Under the pieces are notes generated by a model. It was not told where the DNA came from and did not search any database. It was given only the letters and a program-made list of their open reading frames with translations. From IMG/VR virus record IMGVR_UViG_3300037875_000252, positions 2,670-66,669 of that record: a DNA stretch of 64,000 bases; one strand, given 5' to 3'. Of this stretch, positions 21,280 through 52,222 are shown in pieces. Within the stretch, counting starts at the first letter, position 1. Every line of letters begins with the position of its first letter. Source of the DNA: a virus. The position numbers were made by a program, and so were the translations under genes.

Positions 21280-21567
21280 ATGAGAATTTATAAAGAATAT
21301 ACAGATTGGTTTACTAGGATTAATTCTAAAGGTGAGTTAATTATGTATCATTTAGGAATTAATAAATGTACATGTTCTAAAAAATTTAATAGAGATAAAA
21401 TAAATGAAAAATTTAAAAATTACGATTACGATAAATATGATGATTGGATACATAATCCTTATAGAGTAAGAAATCCAATACACATACCAGAAGAACAGAT
21501 TGAGATGTATTGGAAAAAAAGAATTACAAAACTTTATAATGAGGAAAAAAATAATGTACAAAAATAA
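21280..21567 (+). CDS. PxHIP-family protein (long form)
   Basis: NPIHIPEEQIEMYW. Confidence 0.65.
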   Translation: MRIYKEYTDWFTRINSKGELIMYHLGINKCTCSKKFNRDKINEKFKNYDYDKYDDWIHNPYRVRNPIHIPEEQIEMYWKKRITKLYNEEKNNVQK

Positions 21568-23659: not shown

Positions 23660-23669
23660 AGAATTAACT

Positions 23670-24958: not shown

Positions 24959-25228
24959 TTGAGTAAACATTATTACAACATCTCACCAGTAGAAATAATT
25001 TACAATAAAAATAATATGAGAGAAGTAGGAATATTAAAAAATTGTTTTGTGTGTGGTGAAATATTAGTTAATAATAGATGGTATTGTTCTACTCATTATA
25101 AAAGCATTTATATTAGTAATTATAAGGAATTAATTAATTTAATACCAGATCACATACCAATAGAACAGGAATATAAATATTTAAGATATTTAGTAAAGAA
25201 AAATAATATAATTGACAATAAAAAATAA
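24959..25228 (+). CDS. PxHIP-family small Zn-finger protein
   Basis: CFVC..CSTH..IPDHIPIEQEYKY. Confidence 0.7.
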   Translation: MSKHYYNISPVEIIYNKNNMREVGILKNCFVCGEILVNNRWYCSTHYKSIYISNYKELINLIPDHIPIEQEYKYLRYLVKKNNIIDNKK

Positions 25229-25239
25229 TAGGTTATAAT
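25212..25239 (+). promoter_or_regulatory. Sigma-70 promoter-like sequence
   Basis: TTGACA-N16-TATAAT. Confidence 0.45.
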
Positions 25240-25611
25240 ATGATAATTAAACTTTGTGATGTTTGTTCTACTAATGAATGTAGGTATATAGGTCTTACAC
25301 CTATTGAATTACTACCTAAACACATACCAGCCAATCAATGGATCAAATATACTAAAAGTTTAAAAGAAAAAGTTAAAAGATATAAATATGGTCAAAATAA
25401 TTATTATATAGACGGATTATATATGTGGACAAAAGCAACTGGTAAAGATGGTAGAAGATTACAAAAGAAAGAAATTAATTTCTTAAATAATGATAAATAT
25501 AATGATTGGGTAAAGTATGAAAAAGTACCAGATCACATACCAGAAGAACAACATTTTAACTACTACTATTTAATGTGGAAAAAAGAAAATGAGACATTGT
25601 GTAAAATGTAA
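25240..25611 (+). CDS. PxHIP-family protein with two motif copies
   Basis: LPKHIPANQWIKY and VPDHIPEEQHFNY. Confidence 0.7.
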   Translation: MIIKLCDVCSTNECRYIGLTPIELLPKHIPANQWIKYTKSLKEKVKRYKYGQNNYYIDGLYMWTKATGKDGRRLQKKEINFLNNDKYNDWVKYEKVPDHIPEEQHFNYYYLMWKKENETLCKM

Positions 25612-25768
25612 TAAAGAATTAGATTCTAACGTATTTGCTTGTAATACTTGCTGGAATATAATTAATACCAATATTAGTTCTTATTTAATACCATCACATA
25701 TACCAAAAAAACAATATTCAAAATACATAATCAAATTATTTGAGGGTAATAAATATGAGATTAGCTAA
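25589..25768 (+). CDS. PxHIP-family small Zn-finger protein (not in ORF track)
   Basis: CVKC..CNTC..IPSHIPKKQYSKY. Confidence 0.7.
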   Translation: MRHCVKCNKELDSNVFACNTCWNIINTNISSYLIPSHIPKKQYSKYIIKLFEGNKYEIS

Positions 25769-25976
25769 ACAACTTAATCAATGTATTATTTGTAGTGAAC
25801 CTAATTTGGGTAATTCAATGTGGTATCATAATGATTGTTATGGTAATAAAGATATTATACAAGTACATATTCCAAATCACATACCAGTAGAACAAGAATT
25901 TACATATTTAAATAAAATATACTTAAAGGAAATTCATGAGAAAAAAGAAGAAAGTAAATTTCGGTCTAACAAATAG
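25755..25976 (+). CDS. PxHIP-family small Zn-finger protein
   Basis: CIIC..HNDC..IPNHIPVEQEFTY. Confidence 0.7.
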   Translation: MRLAKQLNQCIICSEPNLGNSMWYHNDCYGNKDIIQVHIPNHIPVEQEFTYLNKIYLKEIHEKKEESKFRSNK

Positions 25977-26334
25977 AAGATATATTGGTAAATTGTGTAC
26001 AAAGGATCATAAGTATGAAGATACTGAATTCAGTGTTAGGCAGAAAGGATCTAACTCTTGTGTTGTTTGTGATTGGACTAATAAACAATTTGCTAAAAGC
26101 TTTAAGTTTTTTGGTCAAGAAGTACCAACAAGTCATAGAGGTAGAAACAATTCTTCTCATATAGAAATAGGTACTGGATGTAAAAATAGGATTTGTTTAT
26201 CTTGTGATGAAATATTTTTCTCATCTTTCAGTGGTAATAGGATATGTAATAAATGTAAAACAAGTAAAGAAACAAAAATAGAGATGAAAGGATTAGCTAG
26301 TATAACTACTTATAGGGTGTTAATACCTAAATGA
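25936..26334 (+). CDS. Zn-ribbon protein, RxCxxC..NRxCxxC family (copy 2 of 3)
   Basis: RICLSCDEIFFSSFSGNRICNKC. Confidence 0.65.
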   Translation: MRKKKKVNFGLTNRRYIGKLCTKDHKYEDTEFSVRQKGSNSCVVCDWTNKQFAKSFKFFGQEVPTSHRGRNNSSHIEIGTGCKNRICLSCDEIFFSSFSGNRICNKCKTSKETKIEMKGLASITTYRVLIPK

Positions 26335-26531
26335 ATCAATTTGAAAAATACATAATTAGAAGAGGATGGGTAAAATGTTTAGGTTGTAATGATATGATAA
26401 ATAATGAAGATATAAGTGATCTATATATTTTTGGTTATTGTCCACATTGTATATCTAAAATACCTAAACATATACCAGAAGAACAGTGGGGAAAGTATTT
26501 AAATAAAAGAAAGAAAATATATGAAAAATAA
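26331..26531 (+). CDS. PxHIP-family small Zn-finger protein
   Basis: CLGC..CPHC..IPKHIPEEQWGKY. Confidence 0.7.
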   Translation: MNQFEKYIIRRGWVKCLGCNDMINNEDISDLYIFGYCPHCISKIPKHIPEEQWGKYLNKRKKIYEK

Positions 26532-26940
26532 AATAACAAAGAAAAGAATAAGTATACAATCAGCAAAAGCAAAAGGTCGTAAGTTACAACAATGGACAGC
26601 CAGTAAAATATCTGAAATAACAGGTATTAAATGTGGCTCTGATGAATTAATATCATCTAGAGGTGGTGGTCAATCAGGAACAGATGTTGCTTTGATTGGC
26701 GAAGCAAAAACACTATTTCCTTTCAGTATAGAATGTAAAGCTCAAGAGACGTACTCTATGCCGTCATTTATTAAACAATCTAAAGATAATCAATTACCTA
26801 ATACTGATTGGTTATTAGTAATTAAAAGAAAACAAGAGAAACCTACAGTAACTATGGACGCAGAATCATTTTTCAAAATGTATGAAAAAACAATACCTAA
26901 GAAAGGTTATTTTATGAACAGGGAAGAAATACCACAATGA
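26521..26940 (+). CDS. Holliday junction resolvase (PD-(D/E)xK)
   Basis: SAKAKGRKLQ, GQSGTD, FPFSIECKAQE. Confidence 0.8.
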   Translation: MKNKITKKRISIQSAKAKGRKLQQWTASKISEITGIKCGSDELISSRGGGQSGTDVALIGEAKTLFPFSIECKAQETYSMPSFIKQSKDNQLPNTDWLLVIKRKQEKPTVTMDAESFFKMYEKTIPKKGYFMNREEIPQ

Positions 26941-27152
26941 GAAAAATAACTCTAAGTATAAAATGTTTAATTTGTGGTAAAGATACTATTAATGTTTATG
27001 TGTGTGATACTTGTGCCCCAAAAGTAAGAAAAAGTTTAGGTGTTACTAATGCACGATGGATTCCACATCATATACCATTTAAACAAGAAAAAATATGGAT
27101 GACTACATATTTGAAAAAAAATAAAGAAAAAATAAAGGAAATAAAAATATGA
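26937..27152 (+). CDS. PxHIP-family small Zn-finger protein
   Basis: CLIC..CDTC..IPHHIPFKQ. Confidence 0.7.
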   Translation: MRKITLSIKCLICGKDTINVYVCDTCAPKVRKSLGVTNARWIPHHIPFKQEKIWMTTYLKKNKEKIKEIKI

Positions 27153-30100
27153 AAATTGGTATAATTGGTGATATACACGCAGATCAAAATAACATAAAAG
27201 AAACAGATATTGGTATGAGTAATCTTTTAAATGTATTATATGATCATGATGTACAATGGTTATTAGTAACAGGTGACATATTCCATGATTTCAATATAGG
27301 CGGTAAAGAAAATAGTTTTGGTAATGTGTTTGATTCTATTAACAGACCATTAAATGATTTCTTAAAGGAAAAAGAAAAGAATAGTATATTAATGATCCCT
27401 GGAAATCATGATACACCAACAGATAAAAATTCTAAAGATGCTTTGTATTCTTTTGATTATAGAAAAAATTTACACATATCCAGAAATATTAGAAGTTTCA
27501 ATATAGGTGAGAATGTAACAATAGCCACACTACCTTGGATGTGGTCTACAATGTACAAAGATAAGAATGAAATACTTACCAGATTAAAAGAAATTAGAGA
27601 AGTCACAAAAAGTAACACTAACATATTAATAGGTCATTGTGAAATAGAAGGAAGTGAATTACCTAACGGATATGCAATGTTTGGTGGTAACTTTAGTTTT
27701 ACTAAAAAAGAACTAGATAGTATAGGATATGATAAAATAGCTTTAGGTCATATACATAAACAACAAGGATATTTTACAGGTACACCTTGGCAACATGATT
27801 TTGGTGAAAGCTCACTTACAGGACAAGTTAGAATAATAGATACAAATAAGAAAACAGATAAATTTGTAGAAATACCTAATACTGTTAAGTATTATAATAT
27901 TAATATTGAAAATGTTGATAGTTTCAAGTGTGGTAAGTTGGATAATGTAAAAGTTTTAGGTAACAAGTTAGATAGAAGATTACCTGATGGTTATAAGTTT
28001 CAGAAAATGAAAGAAAACTATTCATCAGTAGCAAGAAGTAATGTATCCGGTGATGAAACTGTAAATACATTGCTTGGTAAATGGTTAAAAGAGAAGAAGA
28101 TTAAAACTAATATCAAAGATTTGACAAATATATTAGATAAGATAGATGTACCTAATAGCCATATATGTAATGGATCGTTAATTAGTTTTGAATCTGTACA
28201 TATTAAAGGTATTGGACCACACAAAGACACGTATATAGAATTTAAAGATCCTATAATAGCTATAACAGGATCGAATGGTTGCGGAAAGACGTTACTTATT
28301 GAAAGTATATTTGCATCTTTATATGGTTATCTTCCATCTTACGGTAAAATTAAAGATGTATCTAATGAACGTTCATCAATAGAAACTATATTTAAAGTTG
28401 ATGAAATAAATAAATATGTAATAATTAGAAAATTAAATAAAAATAAACAAACAGCTTTCTTATATAAGAATGGTGAGAAGTTAGTTGGTCCTAAAATAAG
28501 CGAAGTTAATAAATATATAGAAAAATTAATTGGACCAAAAGAATTAATACTATCATCTATATTTTCTACACAGTTTTATTCAGGTGATATTGTAGAGTTA
28601 GAACCCACAGATAGAAAAGAAATATTTCATAAGTTATTAGGTTTAAATAACTTAACAAGTATAAAAGAAAAAGTTGATGAAAAACTAAAGTTTTCTAAAG
28701 CAGAGAAAGAAAAGTTAAGTAATCAATCTGATGCAGTATCTACAGTTGAAGAAATAGCTAATAATATTAAAATTAATAAAGATGTTATAGAAGAAGTAGA
28801 AGGTAATATAGTTAAACATGAAAAGAAATTAGAAGTAAGTAATTCATCACTTAAAAGCTTAAACAGTGCTAAGAATAACTATGAAAAAGAATTAACTATT
28901 AAGAATGGTAATGAAGATAAGTTAGTGAAAGTAAAAAATAAAATAGTAGAATTAAAAGAATTAGAAAAACAATATAATAATGAAATAAAAGAAAATAGTT
29001 CTAAGAAAGATACTGTAGAATTGGATTTGGAGTTAAGAAATAAGAATAAATTATTAGATAGTTTTAATGTACAGTATAAGGAACAAACAAAACAACTTGC
29101 TGAACTATTAATTCTAAATAATGTTGTTACAGAAAAACAAGAAATATATAATAACTGGACATTAAGAATTGAAACTATTAAAAATAAAAATAATGATAGT
29201 TTAGAATCAATAGAAAAAGATACAGTACTTTTAAAAGAAGTTGGGTGTAGAGATAAACCACTACCTTGTAAATTTATAGACTCTGCTAAAGATAATTGCG
29301 GTACTCTAGTAAAAGTACAAAAAGAATTTATGGACGGTATTAAATTTGCAGAATGTGAACGCAGAGTATGTAAGAAGGATCTTGATAAATCAAAGAAAGA
29401 AAGAGATGATTATAAAGTAGTTGAAATAGATGAAGATATATACAATACTTTAAATGATGAAGTAAAAGAACTTAGAAATAAAGTAGAATCCCACAATAAT
29501 AGTAAGTTGAAATTATCTGAATGTGTAACTAATTTAAATAATGTTAGTTATAATATAGTTGAAAAAGAAAAAGAAAGAGATTCTATTAATCAATATTTAT
29601 TATTATTTTCTGATATAAATCAGGAAGTAGTTGATAAATTAGAAAAAAGTATTAGTGTATGTAATGAAGATATTAAAATCTTTAATGATTTAATAACAAA
29701 ATACCATGTACATAAAGCAAAATGTATTAAAGAACTAGAGTTCTGTAAGAATGAAATTATATCACTAACTGAATATGAGTATAGCATCAAAGAATTAACA
29801 AAAAATATAACTAAGTTAGACATATTATCAGAAGCATTTAGTAAAAACGGTATACCACAATTAATTATTGATTCTTCTTTACCACAATTACAGGATATAT
29901 TTAATATATTAACTAATTATATTAACAAGTTTAGTATAAAAATATCAACACAAAAACAACAAAAAGAAAGTGTTAAAGAGACAATAGATTTTATAGTTGA
30001 TGACGGTATTAAACCTAGAGACATTAAGTATTATTCAGGTGGTGAAAAAAAACTGCTTAAAAGTTTAATTAGATTAAGTTTGTCATTATTTCAAACACAG

Positions 30101-30316
30101 AAAACAGGTAAGAATTATAAAGTACTATTCATAGATGAAGTGTTTGATAATCTTGATAAAGAAAACTCTATATTACTATTGAAAATAATATACAATTTGA
30201 GTAGTAGGTTTAATCAAATCTTTATAGTAAGCCATTCTACAGATATTATTAATAATTTAAGTAGTTGTATAAAATTAGAACGTAATGGAGAAAGGACAAT
30301 AATTAATGTTAAATAA
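27149..30316 (+). CDS. Fused SbcD/Mre11 nuclease and SbcC/Rad50 ATPase
   Basis: GDIH, GDIFH, GNHD, GHIH; then GSNGCGKT, coiled coil, SGGEK signature, FIDE, VSH. Confidence 0.9.
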   Translation: MKIGIIGDIHADQNNIKETDIGMSNLLNVLYDHDVQWLLVTGDIFHDFNIGGKENSFGNVFDSINRPLNDFLKEKEKNSILMIPGNHDTPTDKNSKDALYSFDYRKNLHISRNIRSFNIGENVTIATLPWMWSTMYKDKNEILTRLKEIREVTKSNTNILIGHCEIEGSELPNGYAMFGGNFSFTKKELDSIGYDKIALGHIHKQQGYFTGTPWQHDFGESSLTGQVRIIDTNKKTDKFVEIPNTVKYYNINIENVDSFKCGKLDNVKVLGNKLDRRLPDGYKFQKMKENYSSVARSNVSGDETVNTLLGKWLKEKKIKTNIKDLTNILDKIDVPNSHICNGSLISFESVHIKGIGPHKDTYIEFKDPIIAITGSNGCGKTLLIESIFASLYGYLPSYGKIKDVSNERSSIETIFKVDEINKYVIIRKLNKNKQTAFLYKNGEKLVGPKISEVNKYIEKLIGPKELILSSIFSTQFYSGDIVELEPTDRKEIFHKLLGLNNLTSIKEKVDEKLKFSKAEKEKLSNQSDAVSTVEEIANNIKINKDVIEEVEGNIVKHEKKLEVSNSSLKSLNSAKNNYEKELTIKNGNEDKLVKVKNKIVELKELEKQYNNEIKENSSKKDTVELDLELRNKNKLLDSFNVQYKEQTKQLAELLILNNVVTEKQEIYNNWTLRIETIKNKNNDSLESIEKDTVLLKEVGCRDKPLPCKFIDSAKDNCGTLVKVQKEFMDGIKFAECERRVCKKDLDKSKKERDDYKVVEIDEDIYNTLNDEVKELRNKVESHNNSKLKLSECVTNLNNVSYNIVEKEKERDSINQYLLLFSDINQEVVDKLEKSISVCNEDIKIFNDLITKYHVHKAKCIKELEFCKNEIISLTEYEYSIKELTKNITKLDILSEAFSKNGIPQLIIDSSLPQLQDIFNILTNYINKFSIKISTQKQQKESVKETIDFIVDDGIKPRDIKYYSGGEKKLLKSLIRLSLSLFQTQKTGKNYKVLFIDEVFDNLDKENSILLLKIIYNLSSRFNQIFIVSHSTDIINNLSSCIKLERNGERTIINVK

Positions 30317-30620
30317 ATATAAGATAGTTAAAGAAATAAATCACCATAATAATAAATTTTATTATCATGTTTACCGTAAATCAAATAATTTCTTTAAATC
30401 AATATGTGAAAACTTTTGTTGTTGGGTATATTTAGATTCTTATTCAAGTTTTAAAAGTGCAAATAATAGAATAGGTAATGAAGTTGAAAATGATAAAAAT
30501 ATAGAAATTAAACTAAAACAATTAAAAGAAAACACTACATTCAAATATACACCAATACCAGATCACATACCAGATGAACAACAGGAACAATATGTTATAG
30601 AAAGTATGAAAAAGAAATGA
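30306..30620 (+). CDS. PxHIP-family protein (non-CxxC N-terminus)
   Basis: IPDHIPDEQQEQY. Confidence 0.65.
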   Translation: MLNKYKIVKEINHHNNKFYYHVYRKSNNFFKSICENFCCWVYLDSYSSFKSANNRIGNEVENDKNIEIKLKQLKENTTFKYTPIPDHIPDEQQEQYVIESMKKK

Positions 30621-30880
30621 AAAAAATAGAAAAATTTGAATGTTATGCAAATAAAGTAATATTTAATGAAAATACTTGTGCAAGTGATAACTGTAAATGG
30701 ATAATTCCTTGTAAGATAATGTGTGGTAATAAAGTAGATATGTTTGAATATGCTTTAATAGAAACATTACAAGGTATATTAGAACGTGGAGAGATGACAG
30801 AAGTGTTAATAAAAAATTATAACATATCACCTAACGCTGTTAAACAGGCTGTTAAACGATGGAAAAAACTAAAGAAATAA
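30617..30880 (+). CDS. Hypothetical protein (possible C-terminal HTH)
   Basis: Cys cluster then YNISPNAVKQAVKRW. Confidence 0.55.
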   Translation: MKKIEKFECYANKVIFNENTCASDNCKWIIPCKIMCGNKVDMFEYALIETLQGILERGEMTEVLIKNYNISPNAVKQAVKRWKKLKK

Positions 30881-31062
30881 TTTGTGATAATTGTAATAAC
30901 ACACCAACTTCACAATACAATAAAGGTGTTTGGTGTTGGGGTGTCACATATATACCAAAACATATACCTAAACCACAACACAAAAGGTACAGAAAGTCTA
31001 TAATTAAAAAAGCAATCGATGAAAATTATTGTGATATGTATCAATCAAATGAAGAAAACTAA
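30859..31062 (+). CDS. PxHIP-family small protein
   Basis: CDNC..IPKHIPKPQHKRY. Confidence 0.7.
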   Translation: MEKTKEIICDNCNNTPTSQYNKGVWCWGVTYIPKHIPKPQHKRYRKSIIKKAIDENYCDMYQSNEEN

Positions 31063-31067
31063 ATAAT

Positions 31068-33206
31068 ATGAATATAAATATAAACGGTAACACAGCAAAG
31101 ATTTCAGGTCACTATAGTTTCACACAGGTAGATAATATTCTATCTTTTAAGAGTCCTAACTATTGGTTTTCACCAGCTTTCAAGTCTGGTAAATGGGATG
31201 GTAATATACGTTTCTTAAAGAAAGATGGGTCATTTCCAGTTGGATTTTTAAAGAGGGTATTAAAATCACTCCCTGAAACTAAAGTTACATATAATGAATC
31301 AGATATGGAAATAGATACTGATTCATTATTTTACTATATTAAGAAGAATAACCTCAGAGATTATCAGTATAATTCTATTAGGATATCTTTAAAAGAAAAA
31401 ATAGGTATAGTAAAATTAGCTACTAATGCAGGTAAAGGTAGATGTATTGCAGGTATAACAACTGCATTATCTAAATACAATGTGTTAATATTAGCAGATA
31501 GAATAGATGTATTATCAGAACTAGAAAAGGAATTAAAAGGATTATATAATTATGAATTATGCACATTTCAAAGTGCAAAGAAGTTAGATTTATCATCATT
31601 TGATGCAGTACTTATAGACGAGTGTATACATCCAGGATCTTATATACTTTTACCTGATGGTAGTTCAAAAACTATAGCAAAAGTATATAAAGATAAAGAA
31701 CCTTATGTCCTAACTGTAGATAATGGTAAATTAGTAAAAGGTAAAGTATTAAGACACATAAAAAATAAAATAAGAGGTAGAAAAATATTAAGAATTAAAG
31801 TTAAAAATAAACATGGAAGATATAGTACAATGTCTTGTACAGATAATCATGGTATTTTTACAACTAATGGAAAAATAAGAGCAGATAAACTTAATATAGG
31901 TGATGAAGTATATTATGTTTACGGTAGAAAAGAAAAACAGAAATTTATTAGAGGTAATGTAAATAGAATAAAAAAGCAAAAAAATGTAAGTTTAGGTGCT
32001 AAAAATTCTAAATGGAGAGGTGGTAGAGTATTATGTGGTGAGATAGGATCACAATACTATTACTTAACTAAATCAGGTTTATTACATAATTTAGAATTAC
32101 TAGAAGATTTATCATCAATTAGTGAATTACAAATTAAAAATTATATAGAATTATGGTATGATAAATTACCAAATAGAATAAGAGAACATAGATTAATAAT
32201 GTCTTTACATAGAGGAAGGTTATTATTTAAAAAAGAACATATACATCATATGGATAATAATAAATTAAATAACTATATAAACAATCTTAGTATAGTAGAT
32301 AAATTAAATCATTGTAAATTTCATAATACAAAAAGAAACAAAAAATATGATAGTTTAAATTATGAGACAGCTAAAATAATAAGTATAGAAGAAAATAAAA
32401 TTAAAAGTAATCATGTATATAATTTGGAAATTGAAAAAACAAATAAGTATTTTGCTGGAGATATATTGGTTAGTAATTGTAGTTCTGTTGGTGCTAATAC
32501 ATTCTATAAAATAGTTACTGGATGTATTAATGCTAAAATAAGAATAGGATTTAGCGCAACACCTAAAAGAAGTGATGGAAAAGACTATTATATAGAAGCT
32601 TCTATTGGTAATGTAATAATAAGTGTAGAGCAAGATGAATTAATAAGAAGGGGTATATCTGTTAAACCTAAAATATATTTAATACCATTTAGGGTAGATT
32701 TTACAGATGGTCATGGTTATAGTAAATCAGAAGATTTATTAGTGAATAAAAAAGAAAGAAATAAAATTATAGTTGATTTATGTAAAGATAAACATGAGGT
32801 AGTAGTTCTATATAAAAAACATAAACATGGAGAATTATTACATAAATTAATACCAGATTCAGTATATTTAGATGGTAGAGATAAAAAATCTAAAAGAGAT
32901 AAAATAAAGAAAGATTTTATTAGTGGAAAAATTAAAGTATTACTGGCATCTAATATATTTGATAAAGGTATTAACCTACCTAATATAAAAGTATTAATAT
33001 TAGCTTGGGGTGGTAGATCACCTTCTGGTTTAATACAAAAGATTGGTAGAGCAGTAAGGAATTGTGATGGTAAAAATAGTGTTGATATTTATTGTTTCGC
33101 TGAACTTGGTGATAAGTATTTTAATAAACACACTAAAATACGTATAGATGAATTGATTGATGAAGGTTATGATGTGGAGACATATAAACCAGGAGTAATA
33201 AAATAA
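31068..33206 (+). CDS. SF2 DNA helicase (UvsW-like) with intein
   Basis: LRDYQ, ATNAGK, IDE/C, GFSATP, GINLP, QKIGRAVR. Confidence 0.88.
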   Translation: MNININGNTAKISGHYSFTQVDNILSFKSPNYWFSPAFKSGKWDGNIRFLKKDGSFPVGFLKRVLKSLPETKVTYNESDMEIDTDSLFYYIKKNNLRDYQYNSIRISLKEKIGIVKLATNAGKGRCIAGITTALSKYNVLILADRIDVLSELEKELKGLYNYELCTFQSAKKLDLSSFDAVLIDECIHPGSYILLPDGSSKTIAKVYKDKEPYVLTVDNGKLVKGKVLRHIKNKIRGRKILRIKVKNKHGRYSTMSCTDNHGIFTTNGKIRADKLNIGDEVYYVYGRKEKQKFIRGNVNRIKKQKNVSLGAKNSKWRGGRVLCGEIGSQYYYLTKSGLLHNLELLEDLSSISELQIKNYIELWYDKLPNRIREHRLIMSLHRGRLLFKKEHIHHMDNNKLNNYINNLSIVDKLNHCKFHNTKRNKKYDSLNYETAKIISIEENKIKSNHVYNLEIEKTNKYFAGDILVSNCSSVGANTFYKIVTGCINAKIRIGFSATPKRSDGKDYYIEASIGNVIISVEQDELIRRGISVKPKIYLIPFRVDFTDGHGYSKSEDLLVNKKERNKIIVDLCKDKHEVVVLYKKHKHGELLHKLIPDSVYLDGRDKKSKRDKIKKDFISGKIKVLLASNIFDKGINLPNIKVLILAWGGRSPSGLIQKIGRAVRNCDGKNSVDIYCFAELGDKYFNKHTKIRIDELIDEGYDVETYKPGVIK
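31623..32477 (+). mobile_element. Intein (285 aa) with HNH endonuclease domain
   Basis: CIHPGS..TDNH..HRLIM..HIHHMDNNKLNN..VYNLEI..ILVSN/C. Confidence 0.85.
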
Positions 33207-33419
33207 ATGGAAATAGATCTACAACCTACGGGTACGATATTTAATAAAAACTATTATAATACATATTATGATTGTTTATATTGTTTATCTGATAGTAAAC
33301 CATTAAAAATTGAATATTGTAATTGTAAACATATACCAAAACATATACCAAATGAACAAAAAGATAAATATATTAGAGAAATGGTAAAAAAATTACCTTA
33401 TAAGTATATATGGGAATGA
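33207..33419 (+). CDS. PxHIP-family small Zn-finger protein
   Basis: CLYC..CNC..IPKHIPNEQKDKY. Confidence 0.7.
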   Translation: MEIDLQPTGTIFNKNYYNTYYDCLYCLSDSKPLKIEYCNCKHIPKHIPNEQKDKYIREMVKKLPYKYIWE

Positions 33420-33676
33420 AAATAGAAAATTGTTATATATGTGGTAATAAACCATTTAGGTCTTTTTATTATGGTATTAAAAATGGTTTTTTAGATGAAA
33501 CTGGGTTAAATATTAACTTTTTTTCTTTTGAAAAAAGACCTAATTATGTAAATTTATGTGAAAATCATTTTATGAGTTTAGGAAGTGTTAGTTGCGTACC
33601 AGATCACATACCAAAAAAACAAGTATGGAATTTTTTATTAAATAAATTAGTTAAAGAAAATAAAGATGAAAAATAA
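33410..33676 (+). CDS. PxHIP-family small Zn-finger protein
   Basis: CYIC..CENH..VPDHIPKKQVWNF. Confidence 0.7.
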   Translation: MGMKIENCYICGNKPFRSFYYGIKNGFLDETGLNINFFSFEKRPNYVNLCENHFMSLGSVSCVPDHIPKKQVWNFLLNKLVKENKDEK

Positions 33677-33866
33677 ATGTCCTTATTGTAATAAAACAAA
33701 CTGTATAGCTACGCAAGTTTTTAGTAATGTTGATAATTATGGTGGTACTGGTGGAACTATTCCATGTTTACACTGTGGTAAAATCATTAAAGTTTATGCA
33801 ACTAGAGAAGTTATACTACATTCAGTAACTAAATCAAACAAATTAAGAGATGAATGTGATTGGTAA
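33666..33866 (+). CDS. Small Zn-ribbon protein
   Basis: CPYC..CLHC. Confidence 0.6.
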   Translation: MKNKCPYCNKTNCIATQVFSNVDNYGGTGGTIPCLHCGKIIKVYATREVILHSVTKSNKLRDECDW

Positions 33867-33887
33867 TTTTTAATAAAGGAGAAATAA

Positions 33888-34181
33888 ATGGATGATAAAC
33901 TAACAAAACAAGATATTGATTTACTAGTTGAAGGAATTGAGATGTGGGAGAAATATCCTGAGATGATAATAAACACATATGAATTTATGAAACAAGGATA
34001 TATAGAAAAAGGTTCTACACAACCAATTGATGAAGCTACACAAATAAAAATTAAAGAATTAAAAGAGCAAATTAAAACTAGAAAGCATCAAGCTATACTT
34101 ATTAAATACAAATTAGTAAAATTAAATCATGTGTTAGATGTAGAAGAAATAGAGAAAAAATTTAACAAGGAACAAAATTGA
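33888..34181 (+). CDS. Hypothetical protein
   Basis: AAGGAG RBS, 97 aa. Confidence 0.6.
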   Translation: MDDKLTKQDIDLLVEGIEMWEKYPEMIINTYEFMKQGYIEKGSTQPIDEATQIKIKELKEQIKTRKHQAILIKYKLVKLNHVLDVEEIEKKFNKEQN

Positions 34182-34444
34182 AATCATCATGCGGCAATTG
34201 TGGAGATTTTGTTAGTGGTGTTGTAGTAAATTACTACTATAACAATCAAAGTATGATATATTGTTGTTTTGATAATAATTATGATGGTGTATTTATTGTT
34301 GAAGAAAATATATTTATTATTTGTAAAGAATGTGAAAATGAATTTAATATAAATAAATTCTCTGATTATCATATACCAAAACATATACCAGAAAAACAAA
34401 GACATAAATATTTTAAAACTTTTATAGAAAAGAATAGAAAATGA
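34178..34444 (+). CDS. PxHIP-family small Zn-finger protein
   Basis: CGNC..CKEC..IPKHIPEKQRHKY. Confidence 0.7.
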   Translation: MKSSCGNCGDFVSGVVVNYYYNNQSMIYCCFDNNYDGVFIVEENIFIICKECENEFNINKFSDYHIPKHIPEKQRHKYFKTFIEKNRK

Positions 34445-34908
34445 ATACTTTAGATCTAATAAATCTATATGAGAGGTTAGTAAGAGAAAAACATTCTCGT
34501 TTCTATAAAATAAGTAGAAGAGGTGATGCTTATGTAAAACACAGAAAAACTTTCTCTAAGCTAAATGAAAAACTTAAAAAGAAAGATATATCACCAGATG
34601 ATTTTATAAGGATACAGTTTAGTGCTAAAGGATATAAGCCTTATCCTAACCAACTACTATCTAAAGTAGCTATGCAAAGATATTTAGATCATATTAGTTG
34701 TATAACAAGTGAAGAAATAAATAGAACTCAAGAATCATATTTACGTGAATTATGTGAAGATGGTTACACATTAGAAGAAGCATTGCAATTTGATATATTC
34801 TACTATTATTTCAGATGTAGTAAGTTAAAAGATTATCCTAAAAATTGGTTGTTTTTAGCACAGAAAGAAATTGAGAAAACACCAGAACTTAAAAACATAA
34901 AATTATGA
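34441..34908 (+). CDS. Hypothetical protein upstream of DnaB (possible helicase partner)
   Basis: P.DFI..QF..PYPNQL.S pattern and position. Confidence 0.55.
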   Translation: MNTLDLINLYERLVREKHSRFYKISRRGDAYVKHRKTFSKLNEKLKKKDISPDDFIRIQFSAKGYKPYPNQLLSKVAMQRYLDHISCITSEEINRTQESYLRELCEDGYTLEEALQFDIFYYYFRCSKLKDYPKNWLFLAQKEIEKTPELKNIKL

Positions 34909-35094
34909 AATGTAAAAAATGTAAATTATGATAATTGTACATGTGTTACATGTACAGGAGAAGTTAATATTGGTATATGTGGTGAATGTGTTTCTAATAT
35001 TTACTATGAAATAATAACATTACCAAAACATATACCAGAAAAACAAAGACATAAATATAAAGTAGAATATATAAAGGAGAATTATGACGGATGA
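34905..35094 (+). pseudogene. Frameshifted PxHIP-family copy
   Basis: MKCKKCKL* then +1 frame CTCVTC..CGEC..LPKHIPEKQRHKY. Confidence 0.6.
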
Positions 35095-36319
35095 ATTTGA
35101 GAAACTATTAATATCAGCACTACTAAAAGATAAACAATTTTTAAAAGAAACAATAGGTTATATTGATGATGAAATATTTAAAAATCAATACTATAAATAT
35201 TTTTATTCTATATTAGAAACATATTATAATAAGTATAATAATGTAATACCTTTTGATATATTTAAATATTTACTATCCAAAACTTTAACTAAACAAAATT
35301 TCTCTAACGAAGAATTCCCTATAATATCAGGATTAATAATTGATATATTTGATACAAAATACGATATTAAATTTTTAAAGTCTGAAATAGGTAATCACAT
35401 AAAAGAACGTAAGTTAAGAAAAATATTATCAAGTGCTAGTCAAAATTTTAATTTAAATAAAATTGAAAAACTATTAGAAGATTTAAAAGATGCTAATAAA
35501 TATGATCCTGAAGAAGATAAACCACTTGAATACGTATCATCATTACACAAAAGAAGTCTTGGTCAAAAGCCAGTACCAACATCTATTACTAGTTTAGATA
35601 CTATTATTGGTGGTGGAATAACTCCAGGTGAATTTGGTTTAATTTCTGCTCAAACTGGTGGTTGTAAATCTATGACTTTATTAAATTTTGCTTGGGGTGC
35701 TGTTCATTTAGGTTTTAGGGTATTGTTTATAACCCTAGAAGATTCTATGGATACTGTGATGCAAAGATTTGATGCTTTATTCTCAAATCAAGAATTTATA
35801 ACTTTTAGGAGAGACCCAACAGCTTCACAAAGAATTAAAAATAAAGTACTTGAACATAAAAATAAATTATATGTGAAGGATTTTTCATCTGGTATATGTA
35901 CAGTAGGTAAAATAAGGTCAGTTATAGCTGGTATGGATAAAATGGATTTAATTGTAGTAGATTATTTAGATGAATTAGGTGGAAGAAATAAGAGAAGTGA
36001 CAGATGGCAAGAAGTGGAAGATTCATCTAGGGAATTAAAAGCATTGGCATCTGAGTTAAATGTTCCTGTTTGGACAGCCACACAAACATCTTCAGCTAGT
36101 TATGGTAAGGAATTTGTAGGGTTACAACATATATATGGTGGTAAAGGTAAAGCACATATATCACATATTGTAATTACTGCTGTTCAGACAGAAGAGGAAA
36201 GAGCAGGTAATAGATTAAGATACATAATAAGCAAACAGAAAAATGGACCTAAAGGTGGAGTAGTGGATTGTATTGTTGACTTAGCTAAAGTTAGAATTCA
36301 TGATGCTAAACTAATATGA
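35084..36319 (+). CDS. dnaB: Replicative DnaB-like helicase
   Basis: LD.IIGGG..PGE, AQTGGCKS, FITLED, IVVDYLD, LKALA.ELNVPVWTATQ, KQKNG. Confidence 0.88.
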   Translation: MTDEFEKLLISALLKDKQFLKETIGYIDDEIFKNQYYKYFYSILETYYNKYNNVIPFDIFKYLLSKTLTKQNFSNEEFPIISGLIIDIFDTKYDIKFLKSEIGNHIKERKLRKILSSASQNFNLNKIEKLLEDLKDANKYDPEEDKPLEYVSSLHKRSLGQKPVPTSITSLDTIIGGGITPGEFGLISAQTGGCKSMTLLNFAWGAVHLGFRVLFITLEDSMDTVMQRFDALFSNQEFITFRRDPTASQRIKNKVLEHKNKLYVKDFSSGICTVGKIRSVIAGMDKMDLIVVDYLDELGGRNKRSDRWQEVEDSSRELKALASELNVPVWTATQTSSASYGKEFVGLQHIYGGKGKAHISHIVITAVQTEEERAGNRLRYIISKQKNGPKGGVVDCIVDLAKVRIHDAKLI

Positions 36320-36516
36320 ATAATGAATATTATTTGTGTAAAAAATGTAATACACAATATGAATATAAATACTGTATATTACAGGTAGGTTTTGATAGTA
36401 ACTCTAATGATGAACATAAAGGTTATTGTTATATTTGTTTTGTTGAATCTAAAATACCAGACCATATACCAAAAGAACAATGGTCAAAATACATGGATAA
36501 AAAATATGGAAACTAA
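36316..36516 (+). CDS. PxHIP-family small Zn-finger protein
   Basis: CKKC..CYIC..IPDHIPKEQWSKY. Confidence 0.7.
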   Translation: MNNEYYLCKKCNTQYEYKYCILQVGFDSNSNDEHKGYCYICFVESKIPDHIPKEQWSKYMDKKYGN

Positions 36517-36655
36517 CTGTGCGTTATGTATTCATAAAAGTTTTACACGTTCATTTTTAATTGGTGTTTGTTTAAAATGTAGAGATAAAATAATACCAGA
36601 CCACATACCATCAAGACAACATAAGAAATATTTAGAATTTAAAAAGATAATATGA
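36506..36655 (+). CDS. PxHIP-family small Zn-finger protein
   Basis: METNCALC..CLKC..IPDHIPSRQHKKY; start reassigned from 36392. Confidence 0.7.
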   Translation: METNCALCIHKSFTRSFLIGVCLKCRDKIIPDHIPSRQHKKYLEFKKII

Positions 36656-36822
36656 GAAAATGTTTACTTTGTTATAAAGATGTGTCAATATGTGATTTTC
36701 TACCTAATAGTAAAATATGTAGAACGTGTTTTTTTTGATATACACAAACTCGTACACAATCATATTCCAAAATAACAGTTTCTAAATATATAAAAGCAAA
36801 GATTAAGAAAAATGAAAGGATA
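36652..36822 (+). pseudogene. Decayed PxHIP-family copy
   Basis: MRKCLLC..CRTCFF* with poly-T frameshift, then VHNHIPK*QF. Confidence 0.55.
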
Positions 36823-36826
36823 AGAG

Positions 36827-37078
36827 ATGAAAAGTCTAAATGAACAAATAGATGATTTTATTATGCCATTCGGCAAATTTAAAGATTGTAAATTAGAAGA
36901 TGTAGATTTAGAATATCTTGATTGGTTTGCTATAAACTCCACAAATAGACTACATAGAATGATAGCAAATAAGTATATAGAAAGAGTAACTAAAAAGTTT
37001 AAAAATAATAATGTAGATTTAGATAGAGTAATTAATAAAGATGATGATTTAGAAAAAGAAATGAATGAACACTTTTAA
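36827..37078 (+). CDS. MPFGK-motif small protein (DUF3820-like)
   Basis: MPFGKFKD..LEDVD.EYLDW. Confidence 0.7.
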   Translation: MKSLNEQIDDFIMPFGKFKDCKLEDVDLEYLDWFAINSTNRLHRMIANKYIERVTKKFKNNNVDLDRVINKDDDLEKEMNEHF

Positions 37079-37086
37079 GGGGAATT

Positions 37087-37515
37087 ATGGATAACATAAA
37101 TAAGATAGATCGTGTAGCAGTTAGTGGTGAAAAGAATGGTAGATGGTCAGGTGGTGTTAATTCTTATTATAAAAACCATTACCAATTAAAACTTAATAGA
37201 AAAGAAAAGATGAAACAAGTAGGTAGTTTATGTGAGAAATGTGGTAAGAAAGTTCCACTATTTGCAACACATAAAGATGGTGACAAAGATAATCATATTA
37301 TAATTAATTTAGAAATGTTATGTAGTAGATGTAGACCAAGATCAAAAGACTATAATAGTAAATATGTTAAGAAGTTTGGTATGTCTATGGAAACTATGAA
37401 AAATAAATACAATCTTACAGAACATGACGTATATAAAAAATGTATTAAGACTTCTAGTAATGAGAAAGAAATAAAAATTAAATTAGAAAAACTTTCTGAA
37501 GAAAATAACAAATGA
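37087..37515 (+). CDS. HNH endonuclease-like protein
   Basis: GEKNGRWSGG, CEKCG, HKDGDKDNH..NL.MLC.RC. Confidence 0.75.
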   Translation: MDNINKIDRVAVSGEKNGRWSGGVNSYYKNHYQLKLNRKEKMKQVGSLCEKCGKKVPLFATHKDGDKDNHIIINLEMLCSRCRPRSKDYNSKYVKKFGMSMETMKNKYNLTEHDVYKKCIKTSSNEKEIKIKLEKLSEENNK

Positions 37516-38021
37516 ATATGTATATCTACTATTTTTTATATTACTATATATGTAGTACTCCAATAATATTTTTTATAATATATAACTCTTTGTTTGTATA
37601 TGAACAAAATAATTGGGGTTTTAGTATGAGTAAATCTTTTTTTGAATCAAATAAAATTTACTCAATATATTTTGGAATTTTACTTACATTAGTAAATGTT
37701 ATTGGTATTTTACTTACATATTTTTTCACTAAAAAATTTAAATATGGTATTGGTTTTCATAAAAATATTAAATTAATATGTAAAAAATGTAATAAAAAAC
37801 TTACAATTTCAAAAAATGTAGATTTTGAAATTTTTAATGGTTTTAAATATGGTAATATTATAATTAATGGTTTGAAATATGGTAATATTACAAATAATGA
37901 TGAAATATTTATTAAATGTGTAAAATGTTATGAAACTTTATGGTATAAAATACCATCACATATACCATTAAGCCAAAATAAAAACTATTTAAAATTATTT
38001 AAAAAGAAATATGTATTATAA
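37512..38021 (+). CDS. Membrane protein with C-terminal PxHIP Zn-finger module
   Basis: Two TM segments then CKKC..CVKC..IPSHIPLSQNKNY. Confidence 0.65.
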   Translation: MNMYIYYFLYYYICSTPIIFFIIYNSLFVYEQNNWGFSMSKSFFESNKIYSIYFGILLTLVNVIGILLTYFFTKKFKYGIGFHKNIKLICKKCNKKLTISKNVDFEIFNGFKYGNIIINGLKYGNITNNDEIFIKCVKCYETLWYKIPSHIPLSQNKNYLKLFKKKYVL

Positions 38022-38175
38022 ATGTAAATGTTGTAAAGAAAATATAATTAATGAATGTAGCGAATCTTATATATGTGGTTGTGTTTGTGCTGTGTGTAGA
38101 GATAAGATTATACCTAAATACATTCCACTAAAACAACATAAAAAATATTTAAATTCTAAATATAAAATATTATGA
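38011..38175 (+). CDS. PxHIP-family small Zn-finger protein (not in ORF track)
   Basis: CKCC..CAVC..IPKYIPLKQHKKY. Confidence 0.65.
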   Translation: MYYKCKCCKENIINECSESYICGCVCAVCRDKIIPKYIPLKQHKKYLNSKYKIL

Positions 38176-38336
38176 AACATTGTACTATTATTTGTAAAAT
38201 GTGTTATAAAATTTTATATTGTAAGTTATCAAAAAAAACTGGTATATGTTTTAATTGTAGAGAAGAATTAATTCCAAATCACATACCAAAAGAACAATTT
38301 AAAAAATATTGGAGTAATAAAAAGTGGATGATATAA
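38172..38336 (+). CDS. PxHIP-family small Zn-finger protein (not in ORF track)
   Basis: CKMC..CFNC..IPNHIPKEQFKKY. Confidence 0.7.
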   Translation: MKHCTIICKMCYKILYCKLSKKTGICFNCREELIPNHIPKEQFKKYWSNKKWMI

Positions 38337-39130
38337 AAGTTACATGTATAAATCCTTATTGTGATGATGATAAAGATCATCTTTGGATAAATGTACAGAA
38401 GATGATCTATCATTGCTGGAAATGTGGATACTCTGGTAGAATAGTAGAAAATAAAGGTATACTAAATATACTAAAAAATAGAAAAACTACTAAACCAGTT
38501 TCTAGAAACAAAAAATTTGTACAAGACAGTAAAGAATTGATTGATCCAAATGGATTTATACCTATAGAATCTTTGAAATCTAATCATTATACTATAGAGT
38601 ATATTAAATCAAGATGTGTTTCTATTGAGTTATGTACTAAGTTAGGTGGTATGTACTCACAACAAGGACCTCTAAATGGTAGAATAGTGTTTCCTATTAA
38701 GAGTGGTAATAATATTGTAGGTTGGCAAGGTAGATCTGTATATAATAGGATTCCTAAATACCTTATATTTGGTAAAAAGAGTTTAGGTATATTTGCTATA
38801 AAGGATTTAAAATCATATAAAAACTTTGTTATTATTTTTGAAGGTGTGTTTGATATATTGAAAGTACCTGATTATGGTATATGTATATTAGGTAAGAAGT
38901 TAAGTAAAGAACAAAAGAGACTACTTACAGCATTTCTAAATGTTAAAACAGTATTTGTTATGTTGGATAGCGATGCAAACATACATTCTAAGAGAGATTA
39001 CGAACAAGAGTTATGTGATGAATTATCAGAGTATTTTAATACTATTCCAGTTCAATTAAAATCTGGTGATCCTGGTGACCTTACTGAAAATGAGATATTG
39101 AAATTATGCCTAAACAAAATAAAGAAATAA
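38324..39130 (+). CDS. DNA primase (Zn finger plus TOPRIM)
   Basis: CINPYC..H..YHCWKCG, RIVFP, GWQGR, FEGVFD, LDSD, DPGD. Confidence 0.88.
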   Translation: MDDIKVTCINPYCDDDKDHLWINVQKMIYHCWKCGYSGRIVENKGILNILKNRKTTKPVSRNKKFVQDSKELIDPNGFIPIESLKSNHYTIEYIKSRCVSIELCTKLGGMYSQQGPLNGRIVFPIKSGNNIVGWQGRSVYNRIPKYLIFGKKSLGIFAIKDLKSYKNFVIIFEGVFDILKVPDYGICILGKKLSKEQKRLLTAFLNVKTVFVMLDSDANIHSKRDYEQELCDELSEYFNTIPVQLKSGDPGDLTENEILKLCLNKIKK

Positions 39131-39131
39131 A

Positions 39132-39401
39132 ATGGAACTACAAAAAGCAATAAAAAAATCTACGTGTCAAAATCACGCATATAGAGTTAATGAAGATGGA
39201 AGTTTATTATTCTATAACGGTAATAATAAATATTCTGGTTTTGGTAATACTGGCGTACACCATACAGGTAAAATATTATCTACTAATGAATCAAACTATA
39301 ATGATTGGATACCATACTTTATAAAACCTGAACATATACCAGATGATCAATGGTTCACTTATTTTAAATCTTATTGGGAGAAACATAAAGATGAAACTTA
39401 G
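39132..39401 (+). CDS. PxHIP-family protein (non-CxxC N-terminus)
   Basis: KPEHIPDDQWFTYF. Confidence 0.65.
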   Translation: MELQKAIKKSTCQNHAYRVNEDGSLLFYNGNNKYSGFGNTGVHHTGKILSTNESNYNDWIPYFIKPEHIPDDQWFTYFKSYWEKHKDET

Positions 39402-52050: not shown

Positions 52051-52222
52051 TAAATGTAAAGGTTGTGGTGAAAATCATATTATAAAAACTGGTATGTGGT
52101 TAGCTTTGTATTGTAATAAATGTTTTAATTTAATACCTATAGACCACATTCCACCAGAACAACATGAGAAATACATATTAAGCAAATTAAAAGCTAGGAG
52201 GATAAATGGCTATAAAGGGTAA
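52043..52222 (+). CDS. PxHIP-family small Zn-finger protein (not in ORF track)
   Basis: CKGC..CNKC..IPIDHIPPEQHEKY. Confidence 0.7.
   Translation: MIDKCKGCGENHIIKTGMWLALYCNKCFNLIPIDHIPPEQHEKYILSKLKARRINGYKG

Follow-up and report, generated by a model that had tools for sequence, protein, structure and literature searches.

The viral record IMGVR_UViG_3300037875_000252 (IMG/VR; 66.7 kb, CheckV completeness 46%) carries very small genes that encode a common PxHIP peptide motif and lie between the genes of its replication machinery. The DNA analysed here, hereafter the window, comprises bases 2670-66669 of this record (64,000 nucleotides, nt), and all positions are given in its coordinates. Its part of central interest, 24959-39401, holds a RusA-like resolvase, a fused SbcD-SbcC, a UvsW-like helicase, DnaB and a primase, each with motif-bearing neighbors. 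GC content is 27% overall and about 24-32% across 2-kb segments, and the plus strand carries nearly every gene. The micro-genes are real genes: they form a multigene family of compact micro-proteins of about 50-90 amino acids (aa), specific to one phage lineage, and their host is an uncultured marine phage. A preliminary description of the stretch had explained them either as insertions directed at start/stop junctions or as metal-responsive translational couplers. The comparisons below argue for an old family under protein-level selection, whose members are probably small binders in which a shared handle carries variable ribbons.

A motif-defined family of micro-genes

The pattern P.[HY]IP, run in six frames over the whole window, matches 35 times on the plus strand and never on the minus strand; in 60 simulations of the window under a first-order Markov model, the matches averaged 0.05 (plus) and 0.82 (minus) and numbered at most 1 and 3, respectively. 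Hidden Markov models (HMMs) built from an alignment of 25 open reading frames (ORFs; alignment A1) and from one that adds foreign homologues (A2) bring the family to 37 ORFs with 38 domains, on the plus strand without exception; over the full 66.7-kb record, the same profile matches at 39 places. Three of the 37 ORFs bear variant motifs (9843, VPKHIH; 52043, IPIDHIP; 52610, VPSHIN). Together the family ORFs span 8,493 nt or 13.3% of the window (11.3% for the 35 ORFs shorter than 133 aa) and make up about one third of the 107 plus-strand ORFs of at least 40 aa in a greedy map that excludes a minus-strand block.

The consensus of the 25 aligned ORFs reads M-x(n)-CxxC-x(10-45)-CxxC-x(3-8)-[IV]PxHIPxxQxxKY-x(8-20). 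The shared plan is a CxxC...CxxC zinc ribbon that leads into [IV]PxHIPxxQxx[KR]Y and ends in a short basic amphipathic helix. The motif stands 12-30 codons before the stop in 33 of 35 matches, and the narrower band of about 15-25 codons given in the preliminary description accommodates 26 of them; the sequence display that belongs to the motif position and bracketing data is INTERLEAVING. Different flavors of the plan exist. A cysteine-poor subtype, (N)DW...P[DE]HIP, comprises 21280, the second half of 25240 and 39132; the foreign proteins P0002, P0028 and P0146 carry two or three motif repeats and no cysteines; and the 'CRDKIIP' genes 36506, 38011 and 38172 form a local group (repeat family D6). 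A search for fused forms of the family returned only one 135-aa protein.

Family genes frequently follow one another. Eight lie in succession at 8666-10397, where the only interposed non-family ORFs are 9046 and 9683, and further runs occupy 24959-25976 and 37512-38336. The stretches said to be free of the family are indeed so at 10.4-20.6 kb and 39.4-51.8 kb and beyond 53 kb, with the exception of a decayed candidate at 55247. Two local repeats were seen at family genes. Within 37512, a tandem 30-nt duplication (93% identical; 37834-37893) gives ...NGFKYGNIII NGLKYGNITN..., and an 18-nt inverted repeat (94% complementary, arms 61 nt apart; 24895-24912 and 24974-24991) covers the gap before 24959 together with the first codons of that gene.

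Anchoring 170 motif occurrences reveals two invariant prolines and an invariant glutamine. The central aromatic position is His in 79% and Tyr in 21%, and Ile or Val precedes the first Pro in 91%. Since the His is so often a Tyr, it can be neither a catalytic nor an obligatory metal residue. Conservation extends past the motif to [KR] at +10, [YF] at +11 and Lys at +18, with hydrophobic residues in the i, i+3/4, i+7/8 rhythm of a helix. Upstream of the motif there are two CxxC pairs in 137 of the 170 occurrences, three in 2, one in 21 and none in 10, and the second CxxC ends 4 or 5 residues ahead of the motif in 94. The two CxxC knuckles plus loop that define a C4 zinc ribbon are thus present in those 137 and in the A1 and A2 consensus sequences; as the pairs are absent or single in the remainder, the ribbon is not obligatory.

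An AlphaFold2 model of the 26331 protein, computed from 98 sequences (pLDDT 73, pTM 0.56), predicts a ribbon fold: a beta-hairpin (strands 12-15 and 22-25), a knuckle helix (38-42) and a longer helix (50-65). Confidence is highest, at 84-88, in residues 41-60, which span the motif. A homodimer prediction for the same protein scored 0.00 with the partner's own fold uncertain, and counts neither for nor against binding. Chance look-alikes of the motif occur in a loop-to-helix element of a flavin monooxygenase (YPNYVPNSQFLEYLKMY) and at the C-terminus of a large Bordetella protein, and they fit a reading of the motif as a proline-braced linker that caps a helix.

Selection on the family acts at the protein level. 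The invariant P, H/Y, I, P, Q and Y are encoded by mixed synonymous codons (CCA/CCT/CCC, CAT/CAC, CAA/CAG, TAT/TAC), as is expected when selection sees the protein, and the strain-level indels within family genes (24, 24 and 33 nt) are all in frame.

Small zinc proteins that work through a partner are known. The anti-sigma-G factor Gin, for instance, acts by binding another protein, the action proposed here for the family. C4 zinc ribbons such as the uS14/S29 type and Bacillus Gin/CsfB (PDB 5n7y) resemble the family in placing two CxxC knuckles on a beta-hairpin within 50-70 aa. Their match to the family profile is weak, however (E 0.04-0.1, not significant; profile positions 4-36 only). They lack the [IV]PxHIPxxQxxKY segment and the helix, and none of 32 members reaches any Pfam zinc-ribbon cut-off.

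More generally, no known family accounts for these proteins. None of the 32 members attains a Pfam gathering score (best 19.5 bits against 27), three have weak PHROG matches (E 9e-4 to 5e-3) to families without assigned function, and neither of two members matches in NCBIfam. A profile search of the PDB gave weak matches to the ribbon part only, Atlas searches returned only unnamed or generic zinc-finger clusters, and a cluster look-up gave no names. No publication on such a family was found in the main text of open-access articles.

Gene junctions and translation

Every bracketing listed in the preliminary description is present. Family genes stand on both sides of the resolvase at 26521 (26331/26937), SbcDC at 27149 (26937/30306), the helicase at 31068 (30859/33207), the gene at 34441 (34178/34905), DnaB at 35084 (34905/36316), the primase at 38324 (38172/39132) and nrdJ at 5326 (5153/7307), and 52776 precedes polA at 52948. 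Two of these bracketing copies, 7307-7453 and 34905-35094, are frame-broken, with the ATG and first knuckle in one frame and the remainder in another. The break in the latter is identical in an independent contig (L001), which rules out a sequencing slip. A programmed +1 frameshift was considered for this copy and rejected, UUA-to-UAU re-pairing being poor and no stimulator being seen by inspection. When gene order between 24.9 and 39.4 kb was permuted, the bracketing stood out only modestly: of the 12 non-family genes there, 8 have a family gene on either side (p = 0.037; runs, p = 0.022).

The junctions are as tight as had been claimed. Neighboring genes overlap or abut at 40 of the 51 junctions that touch a family gene and at 19 of the 55 others (Fisher p = 6e-6), and ATGA-type (-4) overlaps number 16 of 51 and 2 of 55, respectively. 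The first ATG, GTG or TTG of each ORF was taken as its start in both classes, so that overlaps are inflated alike for both. A Shine-Dalgarno-like 4-mer at -18 to -5 precedes 10 of 34 family genes compared to 49 of 74 other genes (p = 4e-4). Such a site is also lacking in 9 of the 16 non-family genes directly 3' of a family gene, including helicase 31068, resolvase 26521 and the 34441 gene. DnaB has its own strong AAGGAG site, located behind the broken copy 34905-35094.

A sigma-70 consensus, TTGACA-16-TATAAT at 25212-25239, lies within the end of the 24959 gene and is the sole perfect one in 20.5-40 kb; the same interval holds no plus-strand terminator-like site. From these two features the replication module looks like a single long operon. 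Promoter-like sites number 145, versus 167 +/- 10 in shuffles. Given the tight coupling and the scarcity of Shine-Dalgarno-like sites, translation by termination-reinitiation across the micro-genes is plausible.

It is a further step to regard the micro-ORFs as translational couplers or arrest peptides, which would deliver ribosomes to the next gene and tune re-initiation through a pause, possibly metal-responsive, at the Pro-rich motif. The enriched overlaps, the missing Shine-Dalgarno-like sites in family genes and in the genes behind them, and the restricted distance from motif to stop are all in line with such a function. The best remaining point in its favor is codon usage at the motif. 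Compared with the long genes of the phage, CAC encodes 13 of 33 His (versus 14%; p = 3e-4) and CCA 52 of 70 Pro (versus about 41%), and ATA is used at 34 of 35 motif sites, although this last skew is weak (p = 0.009) because ATA already accounts for 82% of the Ile codons before Pro across the long genes.

Other properties speak against couplers and make this explanation unlikely. Family genes occur in succession, and couplers of couplers would be illogical. Conservation reaches past the prolines into the amphipathic helix, and the motif lies in the best-modelled part of a predicted ribbon-plus-helix fold, at a preferred distance from the second CxxC. The motif is also found inside proteins of 169 aa (37512) and 258 aa (21816), and twice in one protein. 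Each paralog has its own orthologues in other viruses, and DnaB has retained its ribosome site behind a broken copy. The family motif is not known to resemble any arrest motif, be it SecM, MifM, TnaC or polyproline. Arrest and leader peptides (SecM, MifM, TnaC) and phage Mu Com are similar in that a small ORF precedes the regulated gene and is coupled to it; Com, with about 60 aa, is a zinc-finger translational activator. The family differs from these in that its domain is predicted to fold, its genes form tandem arrays and conserved orthologous subfamilies, and the next start lies at no set distance. One Atlas cluster with Zn_ribbon_Com on 12% of its members (score 0.89) is a lead only, and Pfam Zn_ribbon_Com matches none of the 32 members.

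Relatives, age and rival origins

A tblastn search of 50,697 GenBank phage records with two members gave no match, and the motif pattern, run on one genome each from 185,579 prokaryotic species, matched seven times, never in a family member. In contrast, a profile search of 1.84 billion cluster representatives found 433 proteins at E <= 1e-3; the motif is present in 144 of the best 150 of these, many with compositions unlike that of this phage. DNA-pattern scans yielded 21 loci among viral contigs, with the family in L001 and L006 only (L001 only under a stricter pattern), and at least 120 loci among metagenome contigs. Among the matches listed (141 loci, viral plus metagenome), 14 have profile matches and three, L001, L050 and L006, have multi-copy members; the others have the motif only. 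Searches for related loci by DnaB recovered the same phage only (L001), by PolA alignment the contig L142 and two distant loci, and by P0095 or the radical SAM protein nothing.

L142 is a 15-kb contig (GC 37%) whose PolA is 59% identical and in which the order ligase - protease - polA - SSB - recombinase is that of the window. Of its seven family copies, four are lined up immediately before polA, whose start overlaps with the last of the four, and a degenerate copy overlaps the polA end. The window is arranged alike, with 51850, 52043, 52610 and 52776 upstream and the decayed 55247 ('...SFIPERQREYL') downstream, although BLASTP gave no match between 55247 and the degenerate L142 copy. Gene 41902 has no copy in front of it in the window, but in L142 the homologue of that gene follows a copy at 4502.

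Two short strain contigs could also be compared, L001 (98.5% identity over 5.2 kb) and L050 (99.1-99.8% over 1.6 kb). Both retain every family gene of the overlap, and no empty site was seen. Their differences are small. In L050, a 33-nt in-frame deletion between 9-nt direct repeats (window 25818-25850) removes from gene 25740 a stretch with the remaining Cys of its second knuckle. An in-frame block of 24 nt (8 codons) at 36358-36381, after the first CxxC of 36316, is absent from that gene in L001 and found there about 160 nt downstream (L001 2117-2140), where it immediately follows the start of the family gene behind 36316. Apart from this, the two sequences differ in that 5-kb stretch by no more than one substitution and two N. 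The shift could be a real micro-translocation, a mixture by the assemblers of two haplotypes ('both' and 'neither'), or an artefact. L001 also holds an extra ORF (5212-5355; 47 aa, hydrophobic, non-family) at the window junction 39570/39580, with the ribosome-site/start sequence duplicated on both sides, an instance of ordinary small-gene gain and loss at junctions in this phage.

The idea that micro-genes are mobile and insert at start/stop junctions was the other proposal of the preliminary description, and it draws on members 5153, 26937 and 34178, where ATGA on both sides resembles a 4-nt target duplication. Copy number and places differ in part between the window and L142, two copies are decaying, and small genes do come and go at junctions, albeit outside the family. 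Junction-targeted insertion is nevertheless not supported by the DNA of the paralogs, by their ends, by the strains or by the polA junctions, and we regard it as improbable. There are no near-identical copies, DNA identity among paralogs being confined to 16-43 nt at the motif, and no conserved sequence, terminal repeats or inverted repeats at the ends of family genes. Similarity between copies does not increase with proximity (p = 0.72 for N-terminal parts, 0.47 for tails). No transposase or homing nuclease is associated with the family, and its proteins themselves are too short for such an enzyme. The two strain contigs agree with the window in their family genes, and the copies at the polA junction are shared with the more distant relative. 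Furthermore, 29 of 35 members score higher with a non-identical metagenomic protein than with any window paralog (80.9 versus 42.4 bits and 74.7 versus 37.4 bits, for example), or 27 of 35 once two best matches that are variants of the same phage are set aside.

Mycobacteriophage mobile elements (MPMEs), which are likewise very small gene-carrying units between phage genes, occur as near-identical DNA copies with terminal inverted repeats and a clear pattern of presence and absence among close relatives; the family shows none of these hallmarks, with two short strain contigs compared. Large-virus lineage-specific families, phage 'morons' and the ORFs of hyperplastic regions are similar in being small, non-core, often functionally unassigned genes that are gained and lost at boundaries between conserved genes. 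The present case differs from all of these in that a single family amounts to 37 ORFs (13% of 64 kb), with an invariant peptide segment and orthologous subfamilies elsewhere, and in that it sits inside replication operons rather than in a separate variable region. The family appears to be an ancient expansion whose members have largely kept their places through inheritance, with a slow turnover of genes, free variation of the ribbon loops and no active insertion.

A third proposal treats the family as a library of precursors for ribosomally synthesized and post-translationally modified peptides (RiPPs), in which a conserved C-terminal 'follower' would present a variable Cys-rich N-terminal core to radical SAM enzymes of the phage. 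The prochlorosins, many precursors served by one enzyme, offer a precedent. The window has two radical SAM genes, 1069-1941 and 17831-18541. The product of the former has a Cx3Cx2C cluster motif and C-terminal cysteines in a SPASM- or twitch-type arrangement, and its best NCBIfam matches are the PapB, PqqE, mycofactocin and SCIFF maturases (29-45 bits against cut-offs of 265-425); no relative of it was found in the phage and viral collections searched. Small Cys-rich ORFs (1964, 2183 and 2960) come after it. Although one invariant segment beside a hypervariable Cys-rich part is what such precursors would show, the two CxxC pairs have the spacing of a zinc ribbon and the model folds as one, some motif occurrences (10 of 170) have no upstream CxxC, no leader or cleavage motif was seen, and most members lie 20-50 kb from the radical SAM enzymes, within replication operons. 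A precursor library is accordingly quite improbable.

It has also been considered that the motif DNA (20-45 nt) is itself functional, as dispersed recombination sites for module exchange. PeSL-mediated shuffling of this kind is documented in T4-type phages (PMC2839356), and PeSL cassettes resemble the family repeat as short dispersed repeats among small genes that flank modules. Repeat families of 34-61 nt and 60-87% identity map exactly onto the motif, 38 identical nt lie on either side of gene 34441, and CAC and CCA exceed genome usage. However, synonymous positions vary freely while the amino acids are fixed, the motif occurs in viruses of quite other GC content and codons (L142; R-rich homologues), and all copies are in frame within ORFs of one strand. 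PeSLs are non-coding promoter plus stem-loop units, whereas the family repeat is coding sequence for a conserved peptide, with no promoter or terminator signature in the counts given above. Such a role is very improbable. The last proposal, remnant or minimal beta-beta-alpha-metal (HNH-type) nucleases in which 'DHIP' equals the HNH 'DH', recalls the DHIxP of HNH enzymes and the top rows of the VIA wide structure search (T5 SciA, Z 3.7, root-mean-square deviation 4.6, 57 aligned; Hpy99I, Z 2.8), but is hardly credible: these Z scores are far below the method's noise level of 7-8, Foldseek found nothing in PDB or BFVD at E <= 0.001, the His is replaced by Tyr in 21% and preceded by Asp in 31%, the Gln lies 5 residues past it, both Cys pairs precede the motif, and there is no Pfam HNH match.

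Members, genomic surroundings and probable role

The members of the family and the identified genes of the window are collected in the table.

Table. Family members and identified genes in the window (HMM, profile match; regex, pattern match; gene identities from PHROG and Pfam scans)
Feature	Position	Strand	Basis
Member, 52 aa, PDHIP	2588..2746	+	HMM E 9e-14
Member, 60 aa, PQHIP; ATGA overlap with gene upstream	3340..3522	+	regex, HMM
Member, 58 aa; ATGA overlap at either end; next gene is nrdJ-like ribonucleotide reductase	5153..5329	+	regex, HMM
Frame-broken copy behind nrdJ; ATG (7307) and motif ORF (7340-7453, PSYIP) in different frames; single Cys knuckle remains	7307..7453	+	HMM
Member, 71 aa	7443..7658	+	regex, HMM
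Member, 72 aa; opens run of eight	8666..8884	+	HMM
Member, 62 aa	8877..9065	+	HMM E 6e-20
Member, 70 aa; 61% identity to foreign P0139	9227..9439	+	HMM
Member, 70 aa	9484..9696	+	HMM
Member, variant motif VPKHIHKSQ	9843..10049	+	HMM E 1e-9
Member, 67 aa	10030..10233	+	HMM
Member, 55 aa	10230..10397	+	HMM
Member, 60 aa; 55% identity to foreign P0145	20652..20834	+	HMM
Cys-poor member, 95 aa, DW...PIHIP subtype; weak profile match	21280..21567	+	HMM E 5e-4
258-aa protein, motif at residue 182; weak match, motif region only	21816..22592	+	HMM E 2e-4
Member, 89 aa; first of 24959-39401 stretch	24959..25228	+	HMM
123-aa protein, two motif copies PKHIP and PDHIP; sigma-70 consensus just upstream	25240..25611	+	HMM
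Member, 59 aa	25589..25768	+	HMM
Member, 78 aa; in-frame deletion in L050	25740..25976	+	HMM
Member, 66 aa; modelled by AlphaFold2	26331..26531	+	HMM
Member, 71 aa; ATGA on both sides, between resolvase and SbcDC	26937..27152	+	HMM
Cys-poor member, 104 aa, after SbcDC	30306..30620	+	HMM
Member, 67 aa, upstream of UvsW-like helicase	30859..31062	+	HMM
Member, 70 aa, abutting helicase stop	33207..33419	+	HMM
Member, 88 aa	33410..33676	+	HMM
Member, 88 aa; ATGA on both sides; shares 38 identical nt with next copy	34178..34444	+	HMM
Frame-broken copy upstream of DnaB; MKCKKCKL-stop in one frame, remainder (to PKHIP...) in +1 frame	34905..35094	+	HMM
Member, 66 aa; contains 24-nt block found in next gene in L001	36316..36516	+	HMM
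Member, 49 aa, CRDKIIP subtype (P0005)	36506..36655	+	HMM
169-aa protein, N-terminal half hydrophobic, C-terminal family domain	37512..38021	+	HMM
Member, 54 aa, PKYIP; 60% identity to foreign P0126	38011..38175	+	HMM
Member, 54 aa, overlapping primase start	38172..38336	+	HMM
Cys-poor member, 89 aa, NDW...PEHIP subtype, after primase; last of 24959-39401 stretch	39132..39401	+	HMM
Member, 66 aa	51850..52050	+	HMM
Member, variant motif IPIDHIPPEQ	52043..52222	+	HMM E 1e-13
Member, variant motif VPSHINVYQ	52610..52795	+	HMM E 5e-11
Member, 61 aa; 14-nt overlap with polA start	52776..52961	+	HMM
Candidate decayed member downstream of polA (CxxC..., then SFIPERQREYL)	55247..55510	+	missed by HMM; position matches degenerate L142 copy
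B12-type ribonucleotide reductase, nrdJ-like	5326-7269		PHROG/Pfam
DNA methyltransferases	window		PHROG/Pfam
RusA-like resolvase	26521		PHROG/Pfam
Fused SbcD-SbcC	27149		PHROG/Pfam
UvsW-like helicase with HNH-type intein (Intein_splicing + HNH_3)	31068-33206		PHROG/Pfam
DnaB	35084		PHROG/Pfam
Primase	38324		PHROG/Pfam
ATP-dependent ligase	47332		PHROG/Pfam
PolA	52948		PHROG/Pfam
SSB	56362		PHROG/Pfam
RecA/UvsX-like recombinase with LAGLIDADG-type intein	57175-59247		PHROG/Pfam
Terminase	59870		PHROG/Pfam
Portal	61361		PHROG/Pfam

The phage has no cultured close relative according to a megablast of the 24959-39401 stretch against GenBank phages. Cultured relatives of PolA, TerL and a 676-aa protein are distant only, the best identities to GenBank phage proteins being 27% for PolA and 24% for TerL. 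The 676-aa protein (39862-41892; phrog_1735, E 2e-281) is by far the best-conserved gene product of the window and has no assigned function; it is 52-54% identical to differently annotated proteins of large phages of Klebsiella, Salmonella and Proteus. The stretch at 29.5-39.4 kb is contained almost whole in 18 DNA runs from seawater and marine metagenomes (17 studies); 7 of these runs may be the source sample, and two metatranscriptome runs contain 0.37 and 0.32 of its sampled words. Elsewhere in the window, a minus-strand ORF block with reversed GC skew and no family members occupies 10500-16800, a MoxR-type AAA ATPase and its VWA/DUF2201 partner lie at 22622-24889, a PP2C-like phosphatase adjoins a protein with a weak protein-kinase match (26.2 bits; cut-off 31.7) at 44191-46663, and a tRNA-Gln is located at 46696-46768.

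The explanation we favor, with a probability of roughly one half for the package as a whole, is an old, protein-selected family of folded micro-proteins that are co-translated with their neighbors and serve as binders with a common handle and variable ribbons. That the family is real, old and folded, and neither a mobile element nor a mere leader peptide, is much firmer than that its members are binders with a common handle. Each typical member would consist of a four-cysteine zinc ribbon followed, 4-5 residues on, by [IV]-P-x-[H/Y]-I-P-x-x-Q, a segment that would cap the short basic amphipathic helix (Q-h-x-[KR]-[YF]-[LIV]...K). The expansion would have occurred long ago, and members would since have been inherited mainly in place within long early and replication operons, with occasional decay, as in the two broken copies, and in-frame changes in loop length. 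The micro-proteins would be made by termination-reinitiation from the preceding gene and would, in several cases, hand ribosomes on to the following one. Re-initiation would thereby tie their dose to that of the replication and nucleotide-metabolism enzymes. The invariant segment and helix may form the core of the structure and at the same time a handle by which all members bind one shared partner or nucleic acid, with the hypervariable ribbon loops supplying each paralog's own specificity. Members would then act as small binders or modulators, with proteins or nucleic acids as their targets, and would be neither enzymes nor mobile elements nor leader peptides.

Several observations weigh against this explanation. 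Zinc binding is read from the cysteine pattern and a model, and 10 of the 170 motif occurrences have no upstream CxxC and 21 have one. The basic charge of the members (median pI 8.9) is unremarkable for a genome of such low GC content. The codon skew at the motif may reflect a DNA- or translation-level constraint, or gene conversion, besides protein selection; accuracy selection at critical residues, short gene-conversion tracts and a translational effect are candidate causes. The comparison of foreign and paralogous scores set 150 foreign against 34 own sequences, which tilts it towards foreign matches, the argument from conserved positions uses a single 15-kb relative, and the outcome of the junction test depends on the start-codon rule chosen.

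A more daring form of the favored explanation, possible but doubtful, is a combinatorial set in which some 37 zinc-ribbon 'heads' share one invariant handle (IPxHIP plus helix), each kept in fixed proportion to a neighboring replication or nucleotide enzyme by re-initiation. If the handle docked all members on a single host or replisome hub, this would be a multigene adaptor system of a kind not known in phages. In its boldest form, the radical SAM/SPASM enzymes of the phage would recognize the handle as a tag, and the heads would make up a library of peptides that they modify.

Neither zinc ribbons nor small accessory ORFs at the boundaries of phage genes are out of the ordinary. Unusual here are the presence of one undescribed family with an invariant peptide, its size (37 ORFs), the way it is interspersed among essential replication genes and a coupling significantly tighter than that of other genes. 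Host-takeover and regulatory functions yet to be discovered reside chiefly in small phage proteins, and this family, with 37 naturally occurring versions of a single scaffold and orthologues in further marine viruses, provides a rare and tractable entry point to them. The tight coupling also makes the family a concrete system in which to study the expression of micro-genes inside essential operons. If the common handle has one partner, identifying that partner would explain a large share of the coding capacity of this phage.

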